From a virus, in the IMG/VR virus record IMGVR_UViG_3300028821_000038, positions 98,315-162,314 of that record: a stretch of 64,000 nt of DNA. The stretch is one strand, 5' to 3'. The notes beneath the pieces were generated by a model. It was not told the DNA's origin and did no database searches. It was given only the letters and a program-made list of their open reading frames with translations. This document shows, one piece after another, positions 296 through 64,000 of the stretch. The position numbers and the translations under genes were made by a program. How positions within the stretch are numbered: position 1 is the stretch's first letter; each line of letters opens with the position of its first letter.

Positions 296-330
296 GGTAT
301 CTTCTGGGGTAGTTGTCCGTGGCAGTTGTC

Positions 331-396
331 TTCAAAAAAAAGACTAAGAAGCCGGTAGGCAAGCTACCTGCTGCTTCTTAGCCAGTTTTTTTTGAA
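331..396. terminator. long inverted repeat, possible bidirectional terminator
   Basis: ttcaaaaaaaagactaagaagc-cggtag...ctacc-tgctgcttcttagccagttttttttgaa; A/T tracts on both sides. Confidence 0.55.
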
Positions 397-399
397 ACC

Positions 400-1025
400 A
401 GTCTTCCAAGACCGAGGTTTCTTTTTTTTATTTATTTTTTTTTATTTTTTTTTGCCAAGAATTTTTTATGCGAGGATAAAAAGAAAGGCAGATAAGATTA
501 AGAGAAAATAAAGCTTTGCTAAGAGAACCTTTTGATTGGAGATTTAGGAAATTAAGCATAGTGAGCCCCTGTCGAGTGTCTTTTTACAGACCAGAGAACA
601 CTATACTCAAAAGAACCTCCGTCATGTCGAAATGAGGTTTCTTCGCAGCTGCCGTCGCAGCGATAGCATTTCCGTGGGGTTGCCCGGTCACGGTGACTTC
701 CATATGCAGTGCACTTAGGAAGACGCTACCAAGTGAGTGGCCCGTATACCCCACTAAAACCAACCAAAATAGGCCAGGACAACGGCTTTGCTATCCCCCG
801 TCGGGGAAAATCGCATATCCTTTTCAGCTTTAGGCTTTCGCCCCGTGCTGCCCCCCGCAGGGTTGTGGACTTCTACTATTTAGGAGGGATTTGCAAGATT
901 TGATTTTTTTTGTTATAATTCAAACCTCACAAAACGCTTGGCCCAGCTTCAGTTGGTTGGCTCTCTTGAGCCGTGGGGAAGCTGGGTCAAAACTCCCTAG
1001 GACGCTCACAAAACGCCCCGAAACT
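400..1025 (-). ncRNA. putative long structured non-coding RNA
   Basis: No credible ORF; GC-rich with many hairpins; GNRA loops on minus strand (GGC-GAAA-GCC 833-842, GG-GCAA-CC 677-685); minus-strand -10 TATACT at 1031-1036. Confidence 0.4.
891..919 (+). promoter_or_regulatory. sigma70-type promoter
   Basis: TTGCAA(891-896)-17 bp-TATAAT(914-919) with extended TG. Confidence 0.7.
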
Positions 1026-1030
1026 TCGAA
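926..1030 (+). ncRNA. putative short (antisense) RNA
   Basis: Directly downstream of the 891-919 promoter; 13-bp stem ttggcccagcttc(938-950)/gaagctgggtcaa(978-990); ctcacaaaacgc repeated at 926 and 1005; no ORF. Confidence 0.4.
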
Positions 1031-1182
1031 AGTATAACCAATCATCCTTAATCAATCTTTAGCGGATATCTTTGTGCCATATTCAATATGGTTTAAGGTT
1101 AAAGAGGTGTTTTTTTAATATTTTTACATATTGAAAAGTGTATATTTCAAAATATTAATCAATAAAATCCGACACAAATTTT

Positions 1183-3470: not shown

Positions 3471-4373
3471 ATGGATCTTATAAAAATTGCTCATTCTCCC
3501 GAGTTTTCCTACCTTGAAAAGGTGGCTACTATAGTTGATGAGTTTGCAGCTGGAAATATCGATGGTTCTACTGCGGATGCGATAGCTATGGATGTGGGAA
3601 TAGACCCAGAGGATCTTCTATCTGTATATAATCTGGCCTATGGTGAGGATGGATACGAAGACTACGATATGGAGAAGACTGCCGCTGATGAATCTCTCAA
3701 AATTCTTGAAAAAGTAGCAGCAGATCCTGAAGCGACATATCTCGACAAGGTTGCTTCTGTCGCCTATTCTTATGCAGCAGGAGCCCTTACAGGTAATGAG
3801 GCTGATGCGATAGCTATGAATATCGGTGTAGACCCCGAAGATGTTGGTGATTATTTCATCTCTACTTATATGGACGGCGATATGGAGAAGACTGCCGCTG
3901 ATGAATCTCTCGAGTTTCTGGAGAAAATAGCTTACAGTCCCGATTCTACATATCTTGAAAAGGCTGCCGCTGTTGTAGATGCTTTTGCAGCAGGAGCCCT
4001 TACAGGTAATGAGGCTGATGATATAGCCATGAATATGGGTGTGGATCCTAGTGACCTTGTAGATGTGTTTAGAATTGCATATGGTGATGAACTTGACAAA
4101 GAAGCCGGTGTTATAGATGCCGTGAAGAATTTTGGTGGTCATTTGTCCGGTAGAAATGTAAAAAACGCTGAAGAAGCACTCGCGAATGCAGGCCCAAAAA
4201 ATAAATTTTACACGCCTAGTGGTTACAAAAAGGCTCTTCAAGAGATAGATGATGCTAAGCAGGCACTTGAACACGCAAAGAAAATGCAACGCATAAGTAG
4301 GATAGGTGCTGGTGTAGGTGCTGGTGCCCTTGCTGGAGCCGGTATTTACGCTGCTACAAGAAAAAGGCGATAA
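3471..4373 (+). CDS. repeat-containing acidic/basic bipartite protein, putative head-internal precursor
   Basis: Three ~71-aa acidic repeats, nine [LM]xKxA motifs, basic Gly-rich C-terminus GAGVGAGALAGAGIYAATRKRR. Confidence 0.8.
   Translation: MDLIKIAHSPEFSYLEKVATIVDEFAAGNIDGSTADAIAMDVGIDPEDLLSVYNLAYGEDGYEDYDMEKTAADESLKILEKVAADPEATYLDKVASVAYSYAAGALTGNEADAIAMNIGVDPEDVGDYFISTYMDGDMEKTAADESLEFLEKIAYSPDSTYLEKAAAVVDAFAAGALTGNEADDIAMNMGVDPSDLVDVFRIAYGDELDKEAGVIDAVKNFGGHLSGRNVKNAEEALANAGPKNKFYTPSGYKKALQEIDDAKQALEHAKKMQRISRIGAGVGAGALAGAGIYAATRKRR
3665..4020 (+). repeat. intragenic tandem duplication, 213-nt period
   Basis: Identical blocks cgatatggagaagactgccgctgatgaatctctc (3665, 3878) and tgcagcaggagcccttacaggtaatgaggctgatg (3773, 3986). 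Confidence 0.85.
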
Positions 4374-4376
4374 TTA

Positions 4377-4562
4377 ATGTCTCTTGGAGATTTGCAAAAA
4401 AGAGCGGGTATTGCCCGCCAGCTTGGAAACAATATGCTGGCGGGAGCGAAAAGAGGAATTGGAAATTTTAGAAAAAATATAAAATCTCCTATCGAAACCC
4501 TTAAGAGGGGTTTTGGGTCTCCAAGAAAAAGCGCCCATGGCGAATCGCAGAGAGTAGTATGA
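4377..4562 (+). CDS. small basic KxA-motif protein
   Basis: MSLGDLQKRAG start parallels MTLGQLEKNSG of the next gene. Confidence 0.6.
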   Translation: MSLGDLQKRAGIARQLGNNMLAGAKRGIGNFRKNIKSPIETLKRGFGSPRKSAHGESQRVV

Positions 4563-38205: not shown

Positions 38206-38234
38206 TTGACAACAAGTAGCAAATTTGTTATACT
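38206..38234 (+). promoter_or_regulatory. IS607 left-end promoter
   Basis: TTGACA-17 bp-TATACT with extended TG. Confidence 0.75.
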
Positions 38235-38263: not shown

Positions 38264-38851
38264 ATGTACGTACCTTCCAGGGTGGCGGCCCGTCGCCTGG
38301 GAGTGCATCCAAATACTTTAAGGAGGTGGGCAGATGAAGGCAAGATCGAAGCAATCAGAACAGAATCCGGCCAGCGTCGCTATGATGTGGACGCCTACCT
38401 CGGGAAGCACTCCCGCCTCCGCACTGTCTGCTATTGCCGCGTCAGTAGTTATAAGCAAAAAGACGACCTCGAACGGCAGGTCGAGTTCATGCGAAAGCGA
38501 TACCCCGAAGCGGAAATTGTCAAGGACGTCGCCTCGGGGCTCAACTTCCGCCGCAAAGGGCTTAAAGCCATATTGGAATCCGCGCTTGGGGGAGATCGCA
38601 TCGAGCTTGTGGTTGCCCACCGAGACCGACTTGCACGCTTCGGCTTCGACCTTATTGAATGGATTATCGAACGCAGCGGTGGCCGGGTCGTGGTTCTGGA
38701 CAAGACTGAGCTTTCCCCGGAACAGGAACTCACAAAAGACCTGCTCAGTATCCTACACGTCTTCTCTGCCCGGCTACACGGACTTAGAAGTTACAAAGAC
38801 CAGGTTAAACAGGCTCTATCCGACAAAGGAGCAACGAAAGATTCTGCTTGA
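38264..38851 (+). CDS. tnpA: IS607 transposase (MerR-like HTH plus serine recombinase)
   Basis: AARRLGVHPNTLRRW HTH; YCRVSS.KQKDDLERQ catalytic motif; DRLARFG. Confidence 0.95.
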   Translation: MYVPSRVAARRLGVHPNTLRRWADEGKIEAIRTESGQRRYDVDAYLGKHSRLRTVCYCRVSSYKQKDDLERQVEFMRKRYPEAEIVKDVASGLNFRRKGLKAILESALGGDRIELVVAHRDRLARFGFDLIEWIIERSGGRVVVLDKTELSPEQELTKDLLSILHVFSARLHGLRSYKDQVKQALSDKGATKDSA

Positions 38852-39920
38852 ATGGATCGGGGCGTCCCGCTTCGTTTATAATCTTACTGTCGAAAAGCTG
38901 CAAGCCCATAGCGGGCCTACTCCCAATTGGATGGCGTTCTGGAAAAACGAGGTCGCCCCGGAGCTTCCGGAGTGGTGCGATCCGATTTCATTCCAGGTCA
39001 AAAAGATCGCCGTCCGGGATGCCATCAATGCGTTGAAAGAGGGGAAAAAGCGAGTCAAAAAAGGCATTATTCCGTACTTCAAGCTCCACTTCCGCAGCAG
39101 AAAGAGCCCCGTGCAATCCTGCTTTATTCCTTCAAGCGCCATCAAAGAATCGGGAATCTATCCCAGGGTTTCCGGCAAGGGCCTTCGGTACGCCGAGCCT
39201 TTGCCGGAGTCCCCTATGGACTCCCGCCTGATCTTCCGTGGTGGAAAATTCTACCTTGCCTTACCGAGAAAAGAAGTATGCGCCGTAGCCGAGAACCAAG
39301 GGCGGCGTATCGTCTCTATCGACCCGGGCATCCGTAGTTTTCACACCTTCTACTCCCCAATCGGAGTGGCCGGAAGCATCGGGCGTGACGACTTTTCCCG
39401 TATCGTGCGCCTTGCTCAGCATCTTGACGATCTGCTCTCCAGGACTTCCAAAGCAGGCAAGCAGCGTCGCCGGAGAATGTACCGGGCTGCGGATCGTATG
39501 CGCGAAAAGATTCGTAACCTGATCGACGAGCTACACCACAAGACCGCCCGGTTTTACGTCGATAATTTTGATGTGATTCTGCTGCCGGCCTTCGAGACCT
39601 CGGAGATGGCGCGAAAAGCCACTCGGAAGATTCGCAGCAAGTCGGTCCGGTCTATGATGACCTTCGCGCATTACCGCTTCGCCCAGTTTTTGAAGCATAA
39701 AGCGTTCGAGACCGGAAAAGTCGTTCTAACCGTTACCGAAGAGTACACCTCCAAAACGAATCCATATACTGGAGAGCTGATGACTATCGGTTCCCGCCGC
39801 AGGGTTCGGATCGGTGACGATTGGGTTGATAGAGACCACTTAGGCGCATTCGGGATTTTCCTGAAAGCTTTGGGAGATTTCCCCGACCACTTTCGGGTGG
39901 TCGCAGTTAACGAAAGTTAA
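38334..39920 (+). CDS. tnpB: TnpB RNA-guided nuclease, Fanzor2-like
   Basis: RLYPTKEQ; RuvC-I SIDPG; ILLP.F; VTEEYTSK; DRD; AGGAGG 7 nt before ATG 38334. Confidence 0.9.
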   Translation: MKARSKQSEQNPASVAMMWTPTSGSTPASALSAIAASVVISKKTTSNGRSSSCESDTPKRKLSRTSPRGSTSAAKGLKPYWNPRLGEIASSLWLPTETDLHASASTLLNGLSNAAVAGSWFWTRLSFPRNRNSQKTCSVSYTSSLPGYTDLEVTKTRLNRLYPTKEQRKILLEWIGASRFVYNLTVEKLQAHSGPTPNWMAFWKNEVAPELPEWCDPISFQVKKIAVRDAINALKEGKKRVKKGIIPYFKLHFRSRKSPVQSCFIPSSAIKESGIYPRVSGKGLRYAEPLPESPMDSRLIFRGGKFYLALPRKEVCAVAENQGRRIVSIDPGIRSFHTFYSPIGVAGSIGRDDFSRIVRLAQHLDDLLSRTSKAGKQRRRRMYRAADRMREKIRNLIDELHHKTARFYVDNFDVILLPAFETSEMARKATRKIRSKSVRSMMTFAHYRFAQFLKHKAFETGKVVLTVTEEYTSKTNPYTGELMTIGSRRRVRIGDDWVDRDHLGAFGIFLKALGDFPDHFRVVAVNES

Positions 39921-61856: not shown

Positions 61857-62234
61857 TTATTTTTTAAACCGAACAGCAGTCCCCACCTTTACTCCTTCGG
61901 CATATAGCACTTTGCCGTCGGAGCCAAACACCTTCCTGCCGGGGGACACGACATCATCCCTGTCTTTTAGGTGCTCGGGGCACTCTGGATGTCCTTGAAA
62001 TCTATGGAGAGCATCCAGAATGAATAGGGGAACTATGTATTTGATCCCCTTTTTTTTGGGTGGGAGATGGAGTATGTCTTGGTAAATCTGAACATACTCC
62101 ACAACTTCGCCTTGTCCTCCCACCGCCATATTTTCTGATACAAGCAGTGGCTTCTGCTTGTTGGCGGGGAAGGTAACCACCCCACTTTTCCCTTTTATCT
62201 TTATGGGGTGGTCGGTGAGGTTGATGTATTTCAC
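61857..62234 (-). CDS. phage hypothetical protein
   Basis: AGGAGG RBS, GTG start; INLTDHPI...LPP...YIV...RDDVVSPG. Confidence 0.7.
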   Translation of the reverse strand: MKYINLTDHPIKIKGKSGVVTFPANKQKPLLVSENMAVGGQGEVVEYVQIYQDILHLPPKKKGIKYIVPLFILDALHRFQGHPECPEHLKDRDDVVSPGRKVFGSDGKVLYAEGVKVGTAVRFKK

Positions 62235-62286
62235 TTCTCACCTCCTTTTTGTTTTTTTATTTTTTTTGAAATTACGCATAGCATGC

Positions 62287-62745
62287 TTACATTCTTATTT
62301 TGACGCCGATTAATTCCTCTATCTTGTTATAGAGGACCTCCCAGAAATGTTTTTTATCTGGATGTTGAGCACGACGTAATACAACAAGCTCCGCATATTC
62401 AAGCGGAAGCTTGTCAATTATCCATATTTCATGTGTCTCCGTATATTTGCGACCGTAATTGTCGGTCGCTTCCTCTTCTGTTTCCGTTTTTACCCTAGGA
62501 AGGGCTGCTAAATATTTGGCAGCCTCCTTTCGCTGCTTCAGAAGTCTTTCAGCAGCACCACTTTGCTCCATCAGAGACTTATATAGTGTTTCATTTATTT
62601 CTCCGCCAGCGCCAGTGGTAAGGTCGTCGATATTGATGTTCTGGGGAATTGGCCTCAGTTCCATTCCCCAAGCATTCTCTTTAATCTTCCTTATCATTTC
62701 CGCATAAGCTGCCGCTTTATACGGATTGTATCCAGAGCCAAACAT
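62287..62745 (-). CDS. hypothetical protein
   Basis: AGGAG RBS. Confidence 0.7.
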   Translation of the reverse strand: MFGSGYNPYKAAAYAEMIRKIKENAWGMELRPIPQNINIDDLTTGAGGEINETLYKSLMEQSGAAERLLKQRKEAAKYLAALPRVKTETEEEATDNYGRKYTETHEIWIIDKLPLEYAELVVLRRAQHPDKKHFWEVLYNKIEELIGVKIRM

Positions 62746-62756
62746 TTTTTCTCCTT

Positions 62757-63452
62757 TTAATCAGGCTTTATTTCAAATAAATTGAACTCATTTGCCATTT
62801 TGAATTGCTGCAGAAGTCGTTTAAATTTCTTTTCGCTTCTTACTACAGCTGCTTCAATTTTTTGAATTCCTTCTTCGAACTTAGTCCCGTTCTCTAGGCA
62901 CTCGCGAATAATTTCGTCAGCGCCATAGTAGTGCATATACACTTTCTCGCTACGGTTAGCTAATTCCGTAGCTTTTCCTAGTGCTTCTTTGTATGCTTTC
63001 AATTCATCACCATTAAGCGTCTCTTCTTTTATTTTCTTTGTCAACAATATTTCATCGTTGACCATGAATAGCACTTCATCCCACCCTTGTCTTTTGAAGT
63101 GCTCTTTGATTATATCTTTATGCTCCCACACGGAGCTTTTATGCTCCTGTGGGATAATTATATACTTTTTTCTAATAACGCTTTTTATTGGCGCTCCCTC
63201 AAGTGGGAAGCGCCATTGTTCAATATTTTTTTCTTCGTCCCTAAATTGCTCCAACAAAACAATATCTATTGGAGCTACTTTTGCCCATTTATGGACATAT
63301 AGTCCCTTTGGGCCCTCCCTGATGTCATCTTCATAAACGAAGACGACATCAAGGCCCTCATTCCAGTAGTGTTTTATAAACACTACATTTTTCCCTCTCT
63401 TCCCTAGGGCTCCACCCCTAGGGAACTCTTTAAAAATTTTTAGTTTTATCAT
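62757..63452 (-). CDS. hypothetical protein
   Basis: AGGAGG RBS; first gene after leader copy C. Confidence 0.7.
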   Translation of the reverse strand: MIKLKIFKEFPRGGALGKRGKNVVFIKHYWNEGLDVVFVYEDDIREGPKGLYVHKWAKVAPIDIVLLEQFRDEEKNIEQWRFPLEGAPIKSVIRKKYIIIPQEHKSSVWEHKDIIKEHFKRQGWDEVLFMVNDEILLTKKIKEETLNGDELKAYKEALGKATELANRSEKVYMHYYGADEIIRECLENGTKFEEGIQKIEAAVVRSEKKFKRLLQQFKMANEFNLFEIKPD

Positions 63453-63476
63453 TTTTTCCTCCTTTCATATAGAAGA

Positions 63477-63533
63477 GTCCATGACGTGGGCACCCGTAAT
63501 TAATCGGGTGTTGGCCAACATTTCAGTTAGCGC
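63477..63533 (-). ncRNA. three-hairpin leader RNA element, copy C
   Basis: GCUAAC-UGAAAU-GUUGGC / CACCCG-AUUAAUUA-CGGGUG / CCA-CGUCA-UGG. Confidence 0.6.
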
Positions 63534-63706
63534 ATTCTTACAATCATATATATATACCAGCTTTTTAAATTAAGAAAATTTACTTTTTTCGTCCTTATAA
63601 AAATAAGGGGGGGAGCTATTATGAATTTAAAAAATAATAGATATGTAAAAAAGACTTCCCTAAAATCCATTCGGCCTTGGCGAGGCCGTTGGCAGAATGT
63701 AGCCTA

Positions 63707-63738
63707 AAAAAAAATAGGGGCCTCCTACCCCCCCTATT
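63707..63738 (-). terminator. intrinsic terminator after the MYG1-like gene
   Basis: Minus strand aatagggg...cccctatttttttt. Confidence 0.6.
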
Positions 63739-63739
63739 C

Positions 63740-64000
63740 CTAGAGAGATATGTCAAAGATCTCTTTGACGTATCTCTCCATTGAAGCCCGTTCAGGGGCG
63801 ACAGCAAAAAACTTGCCCGCATGAACGAACTTCATGTAGTCGCGGGGCTCTAGACCGCGACCAACTCTCTCGAAAGATCCAGGCTCTGCTGGAGCCACCT
63901 GGATCTTCCAGTCTCCCGCCTTATCATCTTCCCAGACGACCGCCTCTACGTCTGGGTTGATGACACCGTTGAATACTTTCTGCCAGTGCCTCATGTGCCC
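63740..64000 (-). CDS. C-terminus of a MYG1-like (UPF0160) protein, partial
   Basis: WKIQVAP..PGSFE and FVHAGKFFAV match the MYG1-family C-terminal pattern. Confidence 0.55.
   Translation of the reverse strand, partial: GHMRHWQKVFNGVINPDVEAVVWEDDKAGDWKIQVAPAEPGSFERVGRGLEPRDYMKFVHAGKFFAVAPERASMERYVKEIFDISL

Follow-up and report, generated by a model that had tools for sequence, protein, structure and literature searches.

The island at about 540-1061 in this phage genome, which is GC-rich and without long open reading frames (ORFs), is a candidate gene for a structured noncoding RNA (ncRNA). We put at about even the chances that it specifies a functional orphan ncRNA of about 0.5 kb, encoded on the minus strand and belonging to no known family. 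The broader statement that the island resembles a structured RNA gene in its behaviour, with a preference for the minus strand, is partly supported, and the evidence makes plausible a cis-antisense pair in which a plus-strand transcript overlaps the long RNA near its 5' end. Nothing specifically supports the RNA-primed origin that an initial annotation of this DNA had proposed for the locus. Transcription, the RNA ends, the antisense interaction, a conformational switch and a biological role are all things that we infer from the DNA and its predicted folds. Should the RNA prove real, it would represent a new family of large structured RNAs, in a phage lineage that is deeply divergent and at the principal junction of its gene blocks. 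So far the element is known from a single, nearly clonal phage population, which limits its wider importance.

Setting and composition of the island

The window (the whole stretch of 64,000 nucleotides analysed here, to which all coordinates refer) forms the final 64 kb of an IMG/VR virus record that has 162,314 bases and an estimated completeness of 82%. The phage is an uncultured one of deep-sea vents: several diffuse-flow hydrothermal-vent metagenomes and one epibiont metagenome contain it, and diverged relatives of it occur in the samples ENA ERZ27262661 and ERZ1746275 and JGI 3300026546, 3300007771 and 3300028838. No cultured phage has a large terminase more than 30% identical to its own, and most of its proteins have no match among the PHROG or Pfam families. 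It carries a TnpB-like gene of 52-57% GC, whose protein product found matches in Chloroflexota MAGs only in a genome-contig scan. The island lies between two plus-strand gene blocks, with no neighbouring gene on the minus strand. The upstream block holds rIIB-like, RNase H and small unknown genes, with the RNase H gene (PF00075) 2.7 kb upstream of the island. Downstream lies the plus-strand gene for a Gly-rich protein of 156 or 172 aa (1573, or 1525, to 2043). As read from the sequence, an extended -10 on the plus strand, TGATATAAT at 1545-1553, stands immediately upstream of the ribosome-binding site and ATG (1573) of this gene, which therefore does not need the promoter-like site within the island (891-919). 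ARAGORN found no tRNA or tmRNA in the window, the single tRNA of the record being 94 kb from the island, and no initiator-like protein was recognised near the locus.

The initial annotation had described some 700 bp devoid of a credible ORF, and this description stands. Throughout 165-1161 the longest open frame, counted from stop to stop, is shorter than 80 codons and the small ORFs are all of 65 aa or less; a Pfam search with five of them returned nothing credible, and a 41-aa ORF matches only itself. A 48-codon ORF at 891-1037 gains an in-frame TGA in the natural variant described below and is thus not coding. The annotation had also named a decayed protein gene among the findings that would speak against its reading, and neither the small ORFs nor the least-interrupted frame shows any protein similarity. 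The exhaustive translated search took this one frame (+2), with the other five outside it, and found 0 matches among 1.84 billion protein representatives when the frame was read through its stops.

GC content reaches 0.50-0.58 at about 600-850 and 950-1050, against 0.40 genome-wide, with a 35-nt AT-rich gap at 889-925 inside the GC-rich island. The annotation had extended the GC-rich region over 300-1040; since 400-555 is AT-rich, the GC-rich part is better placed at about 556-1061. To the right, an AT-rich tract at 1080-1170 (GC 0.23-0.25) separates the island from a repeat array. The minus strand is G-rich over about 700-860, where the plus-strand GC skew is -0.19 to -0.23, and it does carry the annotated G6 tract (851-856, read as C6 on the plus strand). 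No other stretch of at least 200 nt in the 162-kb record both lacks a long ORF and exceeds the genome's mean GC by 10 points or more, and four related records (G001, G002, G003 and G005) have no comparable GC-rich ORF-free gap. A screen for GC-rich ORF-free islands is thus workable on AT-rich phage genomes.

The locus is also an exchange hot-spot, as is evident from the at least five alternative gene sets that otherwise near-identical phages carry between the gene for an 82-aa protein and the island. The island itself is retained in every hot-spot arrangement that reaches it. The array beyond it (1175-1480) is built from a near-palindromic 19-nt unit, present six times and grouped into two blocks of about 180 bp; it is unique to the locus and varies in copy number. 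One contig, L007, has a single 180-bp block; it is 95% identical to our record from 1342 on and keeps the array and the downstream gene, and its left flank is unrelated, with the start of a leftward gene and no island within 555 nt. Another, L192, is 85% identical from 2132 on, and in it a gene of 199 aa replaces the array and the 172-aa gene. These two arrangements indicate that the repeat array can be parted from the island in nature.

Homologues of the island were sought widely. Rfam covariance models, the first check suggested by the initial annotation, matched nothing in the whole window at gathering score, and at E <= 10 over 200-1600 gave chance-level microRNA and snoRNA matches only, with RNAI absent. 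The ROOL model gave 0 matches to the 162-kb record at E <= 10, a result that does not show absence because the same search also detected ROOL in 0 of 14 reference genomes used as a control. The annotation had also suggested collecting homologues from related phages, and this yielded none: blastn of the island against 50,697 phage records found no match, neither nhmmer nor blastn matched it to the four related records, and a pattern scan of IMG/VR was empty with an 18-mer and with the array pattern, and with a 17-mer returned 9 matches, all of them chance occurrences in GC-rich contigs. A metagenome scan with a gapped duplicated 10-mer, an ill-suited pattern, returned more than 120 loci, all unrelated and of tandem-repeat or CRISPR-like kind, and the short matches seen in related phage records are AT-rich promoter-like words. 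Assemblies reached through the flanking proteins are either 100% identical across the island or end before it. Among public sequencing runs, no RNA run was listed as containing the phage, and one metatranscriptome run (X8) compared with the window yielded nothing, a result that has no bearing on expression. The candidate RNA thus belongs, by these comparisons, to no described RNA family.

Predicted folding and the natural variant

Folded as RNA, the minus strand of 540-1060 has a minimum free energy of -191 kcal/mol (z = -5.3 against dinucleotide shuffles) and the plus strand one of -161 kcal/mol (z = -3.0). The minus-strand sub-blocks folded alone give z-scores of only -1.8 and -2.3, so much of the minus-strand signal comes from long-range helices that join 940-986 with 741-775. 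A genome-wide control, in which folding energy was regressed on GC for every 300-nt window on both strands, places the best minus-strand window (687-986) 19th of 1081, with z = -2.3, and leaves the plus strand unremarkable. The fold signal is therefore modest once GC is controlled, and thermodynamics alone is suggestive rather than compelling.

Read from its presumed 3' end, the predicted minus-strand RNA comprises a terminal hairpin (553-609) followed by UUAAUUU, a five-pair hairpin with a GACG loop (648-661), a domain (662-795) that can be closed by a helix between 662-668 and 789-795, a weak A4/U4 stem visible in the sequence (807-824), and a two-tier hairpin (825-850) whose lowest pair is a G-U that exists on the minus strand only. 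The last of these is capped by the one GNRA loop of the predicted fold (GAAA, 832-843); the many minus-strand GNRA loops of the initial annotation dwindle to this one, beside two GACG loops and one AAGA loop. Toward the 5' end lies a long hairpin (938-990) that encloses a smaller one at 958-973. On the plus strand 13 pairs of the long hairpin form, one of them G-U, and on the minus strand 9; there two wobble positions count against the hairpin, and its 3' half can alternatively pair with 741-775. A nine-pair hairpin at 999-1019 exists on the minus strand only, because four of its pairs are G-U. The opposite strand preferences of these two hairpins would fit a use of both strands and are also compatible with chance.

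Two alternative minus-strand folds are predicted about 6 kcal/mol apart. One pairs 940-986 with 741-775; the other folds 940-986 into its local hairpin and leaves the left block closed on itself through 662-668/789-795 and 674-680/748-754. By these predictions, an antisense RNA covering 926-1024 would force the local-hairpin state.

The only natural variant of the island comes from contigs of one epibiont metagenome (run X4) that are 85-95% identical to it. We describe it from a list of differences, a further 19 substitutions and one indel not being among those listed. The clearest listed changes fall in the 648-661 hairpin, where 651 G>A and 658 C>T together turn a G-C pair into A-U, and where 648 G>A makes the closing pair G-U on the minus strand and A-C on the plus strand. 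A double change within one pair would arise by chance in 2-5% of cases, by our own rough estimate. One X4 contig drops the A at 810 and the T at 821, on the two sides of the A4/U4 stem, which would remove one pair. Over 531-708 the variant has 26 substitutions and 9 inserted letters, and most of the listed ones fall in 571-619, a segment that is almost unalignable; applying the listed edits still predicts a terminal hairpin, formed by different partners. Within the 662-795 domain, 709-779 is replaced by 115 unaligned letters, which suggests that the inner part of the domain is a variable peripheral region. Together we read these changes as support for a structure. The support is real but thin, since it comes from one lineage and only one hairpin shows a compensatory change that is clean.

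The X4 alignment also helps to delimit the element. It ends on the left at about 531, beside the terminal hairpin, and this end is the likely 3' boundary of the RNA; on the right, differences resume at 1062. These two positions set the limits that we use for the core. The X4 contigs are 98-99% identical to our record over 905-1450 and about 92% in the left block and the upstream gene. As the high identity runs on through the array, we read it as a recombination mosaic, which may account for the low divergence of 905-1450 without selection or any special constraint on the right block. Some X4 contigs break off at 918 and 942, which suggests that the left block can part from the right one and that other joints occur in the population.

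Much of this evidence bears on a reading that we judge unlikely while giving it some weight, namely that the island is a functionless GC-rich remnant in the hot-spot. It could be what is left of a decayed gene, a fragment acquired from a donor richer in GC, or a small mobile element, palindromic and with a 12-bp duplication, and its predicted folds would then simply follow GC content. Such a remnant would be at home in a mosaic locus with at least five gene sets after the 82-aa gene, in a phage whose TnpB-like gene is an example of GC-rich foreign DNA acquired at another place, and the modest fold signal of the genome-wide control and the lack of homologues in our searches agree with it. Exact 12-bp direct repeats around a 67-nt stretch with the 938-990 hairpin also resemble an insertion with target duplication. 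However, a remnant would leave the X4 variant's compensatory pair, strand-specific wobble and rebuilt terminal hairpin without an explanation, and it is at odds with the retention of the island in every hot-spot arrangement that reaches it. Against it, too, there is no protein similarity in the small ORFs or the least-interrupted frame, and a comparison of the island with the phage's TnpB element and with the flanks of its Chloroflexota relatives found no similarity.

Promoters, terminators and a putative antisense transcript

The initial annotation had described two promoters facing each other across the right part of the island, and of this geometry one side stands. The plus-strand site at 891-919 is present as TTGCAA-17-TGnTATAAT, a sigma-70-type promoter-like site with a predicted start near 926, and in the X4 variant, where 897 is deleted and there is an insertion after 903, its spacer remains 17 nt. 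This pair of changes is also what gives the 48-codon ORF its in-frame TGA. Sites this strong are matched 5 times genome-wide, against 4.4 +/- 1.8 in shuffled sequence, and the 162 kb contain four distinct sites of such strength, 891-919 among them. The existence of the site is thus unremarkable and its position is what is notable; we estimate at roughly 3% the chance that one such site would land in this 1-kb gap. On the other side, the proposed minus-strand -10 (1031-1036) reads TATACT, but its only -35-like hexamer is 13 nt away and the promoter scan reported nothing there. The same scan found no minus-strand promoter near 1030-1180, although the phage may use promoters that it does not model. 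What survives is a plus-strand promoter-like site that lies antisense to the 5' part of the long RNA, without a convincing minus-strand promoter opposite.

With a start at about 926, the transcript would have CTCACAAAACGC at its 5' end, followed by the 938-990 hairpin and, from 1005, by this 12-mer a second time; the two exact copies (926-937 and 1005-1016) bracket the long hairpin, and the 162-kb record holds no further copy or complement. The annotation expected this promoter to make a stem-loop RNA of about 100 nt. As a scan found no terminator-like site on the plus strand from 926 to 2051, there is no evident discrete RNA of that length.

At the far end, the large inverted repeat annotated at 331-396 is confirmed as a hairpin with 19-nt arms (334-352/373-391) flanked by A8 and T8, a shape expected of an intrinsic, two-way terminator. 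Transcription of the plus-strand genes upstream would end there, and, with A8 and T8 on the two sides of the hairpin, any leftward minus-strand transcript would stop there too. Its loop shows a single difference, 362 A>T, in contig L194. A second terminator hairpin on the plus strand (393-428, followed by T8, with T-rich sequence to 455), read from the sequence, stands in tandem with the first. The two-way terminator thus lies downstream of a minus-strand reading of the island, though every neighbouring gene is on the plus strand.

These parts can be assembled into a scheme for the preferred minus-strand RNA. The RNA would end at its own hairpin (553-609) or at the two-way terminator (334-391), and the plus-strand promoter at 891-919 would start a transcript near 926 that is complementary to the long RNA's 5' 100-130 nt. 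Pairing between sense and antisense RNA would keep 940-986 from reaching 741-775 and would thereby push the long RNA between the two predicted folds of nearly equal energy. We count against the switch that the partner segment 741-775 lies inside the part replaced in X4. Against a minus-strand RNA we count the lack of a minus-strand promoter in the scan and the wobble pairs of the 938-990 hairpin, which favour the plus strand.

The same two points invite a plus-strand interpretation, which we regard as improbable. Here transcription from the 891-919 promoter would run through a structured leader (926-1061) into the AT-rich tract and the array, as origin activation or priming on the model of T4 oriF/oriG and of transcriptional activation in lambda, or simply as a regulatory leader, and the left GC-rich block would be unrelated. 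The only good promoter is indeed on the plus strand, with its spacing kept in X4; the 938-990 hairpin is better on that strand, where it has 13 pairs with one G-U among them; the breaks in X4 contigs at 918 and 942 fall between the blocks; and an AT-rich tract followed by repeats is the classic layout of an origin. From background knowledge of T4, a promoter that reads into an AT-rich tract and an array recalls oriF and oriG, which use an R-loop primer, and oriE, with its iterons and transcript. Yet in this phage a GC-rich structured leader of 135 nt intervenes, and the AT-rich tract is about 155-245 nt from the predicted start, a longer distance than is known for the T4 origins. The left block, upstream of the promoter and with its compensatory changes, would go unexplained, the next gene has an extended -10 of its own, and an origin would here have neither a recognised initiator-like protein nearby nor a skew signal.

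The proposed origin control and known structured RNAs

The structured RNA that we favour could still act on replication, and the initial annotation had gone further, proposing an RNA-controlled origin like that of ColE1-type plasmids. The evidence does not support that proposal: there is no RNAI match, no terminator for the short RNA and no switch in skew, and the array is separable from the island. Cumulative GC skew tracks gene direction only and takes no turn at the locus, which is weak evidence in a phage. The annotation's more cautious suggestion, a new ncRNA class beside the repeat array, is partly supported as far as structured-RNA behaviour and the lack of a known family go; the link to the array is not fixed. 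To a logic of ColE1 kind evolved independently in a large lytic-type phage of deep-sea vent bacteria, in which an antisense RNA sets an RNA of about 0.5 kb that controls an origin or an early-to-late switch beside the iteron-like array, we give a slim chance.

A ColE1-like replicon in the strict sense is very improbable. The minus-strand RNA would hybridise persistently to the DNA and serve as a primer, and a plus-strand RNA of about 100 nt from 891-919 would bind its 5' end and block primer formation. The promoter does face the 5' part of a longer folded RNA, as with RNA I and RNA II (RF00106), and the alternative folds hinge on the 5' segment in both; the minus-strand G6 run and the G-richness over about 700-860, the AT-rich tract 400-555 downstream and the RNase H gene 2.7 kb upstream would also be in keeping. 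Unlike the plasmid system, however, the island has no Rfam RNAI match even at E <= 10, no plus-strand terminator before 2051 for the short RNA, and no clear promoter for the long one, its minus-strand -10 being without a usable -35. The GC skew is unchanged at the locus, and the strong terminator after the long RNA suggests normal termination rather than primer processing. The settings differ as well, ColE1 being a small plasmid and the island part of a lytic-type phage of roughly 190 kb. Initiation of the ColE1 type needs host Pol I and has been described in small plasmids; we know of no case in phages of about 190 kb with rII-type genes.

The chance that the locus is instead a type I toxin-antitoxin-like system is close to negligible: a 43-codon minus-strand ORF (559-428), with a hydrophobic middle and a basic tail after a GGGG motif resembling a ribosome-binding site, could be served by the minus-strand RNA as a structured mRNA and silenced by the antisense, in a layout of long structured RNA, 5' cis-antisense and small hydrophobic ORF downstream that fits hok/sok and AapA/IsoA, but the ORF lies in the AT-rich part and its region is not conserved in the only variant, whose alignment does not extend left of about 531, poly-A runs encode its basic tail, and the leader of 480 nt is several times longer than the far shorter leaders of those systems.

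As a structured RNA on the minus strand, the island is comparable to ROOL (RF03087) and GOLLD (RF01998), which are likewise large, GC-rich, ORF-free folded phage RNAs, the island being a candidate of about 0.5 kb. It differs from them, and from OLE and the other large ncRNAs of Rfam, in matching no covariance model, and from ROOL and GOLLD also in that it does not lie beside tRNA genes and is found in a single phage lineage only. ROOL and GOLLD form unexpected RNA-only assemblies (bioRxiv 10.1101/2024.12.08.627333), and on that account each new class of large phage RNA merits structural study.

The palindromic repeat array and its flanks

The copy number of the palindromic repeat array (1175-1480) is variable, since in the 95%-identical relative L007 the array (L007:556-700) has only one 180-bp block, and contigs of the epibiont metagenome contain alternative spacers within the array (X4 joints). 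In L007 divergent genes flank the array, a placement that would be as fitting for an operator or a partition site as for an origin. Promoter-like hexamers on both strands overlap where the 156/172-aa gene starts (1545-1577): the plus strand carries TGATATAAT, the minus strand TTCATA-17-TATTAT. Leftward transcription from the minus-strand hexamers would run through the array and into the island, the GC-rich, ORF-free stretch at ~540-1061.

Clonality and gene replacement beside the island

Over positions 1-2200 of the window (2.2 kb), assemblies that derive from several vent samples, and from at least two separate studies (PRJEB12000 and PRJEB19456; assemblies compared: L004, L005, L006, L137, L139-L143, L194 and L202-L205), are 99.8-100% identical, a striking degree of clonality for a phage from the environment. 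The interval from the 82-aa gene (end ~150) to the island is a gene-replacement hot-spot, as seen in loci L004, L005, L198, L207 and L208. Five alternative arrangements follow the 82-aa gene in phages that are otherwise near-identical: a 187-aa and a 149-aa gene; a 175-aa gene; a 111-aa gene; a gp49-like 102-aa gene with a larger gene (274 aa up to the contig end, where the gene is incomplete); or nothing.

A TnpB-like gene and the ends of the virus record

A TnpB/IS605-type "transposase" gene (38334-39917, plus strand; 528 aa; phrog_506, E = 2e-33) has a GC content of 52-57%, far exceeding the phage's 40%, and its nearest genomic relatives (43-54% identical) occur in Chloroflexota MAGs as multi-copy elements. 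A short way upstream lies a sigma-70 promoter-like site (38206-38234; 11/12, with a TG extension). The gene looks like a TnpB-like, RNA-guided nuclease element recently imported into the phage.

On both strands, the strongest-folding 300-nt windows of the genome are at both ends of the virus record (window ~61,900-64,000 and record positions 1-1,300), with GC-corrected z-scores as low as -5.3; these ends contain several diverged direct repeats, ~1.9 kb apart. The single tRNA gene of the record, a tRNA-Leu(TAA) on the minus strand (record positions 4314-4397), lies outside the window, 94 kb from the island.
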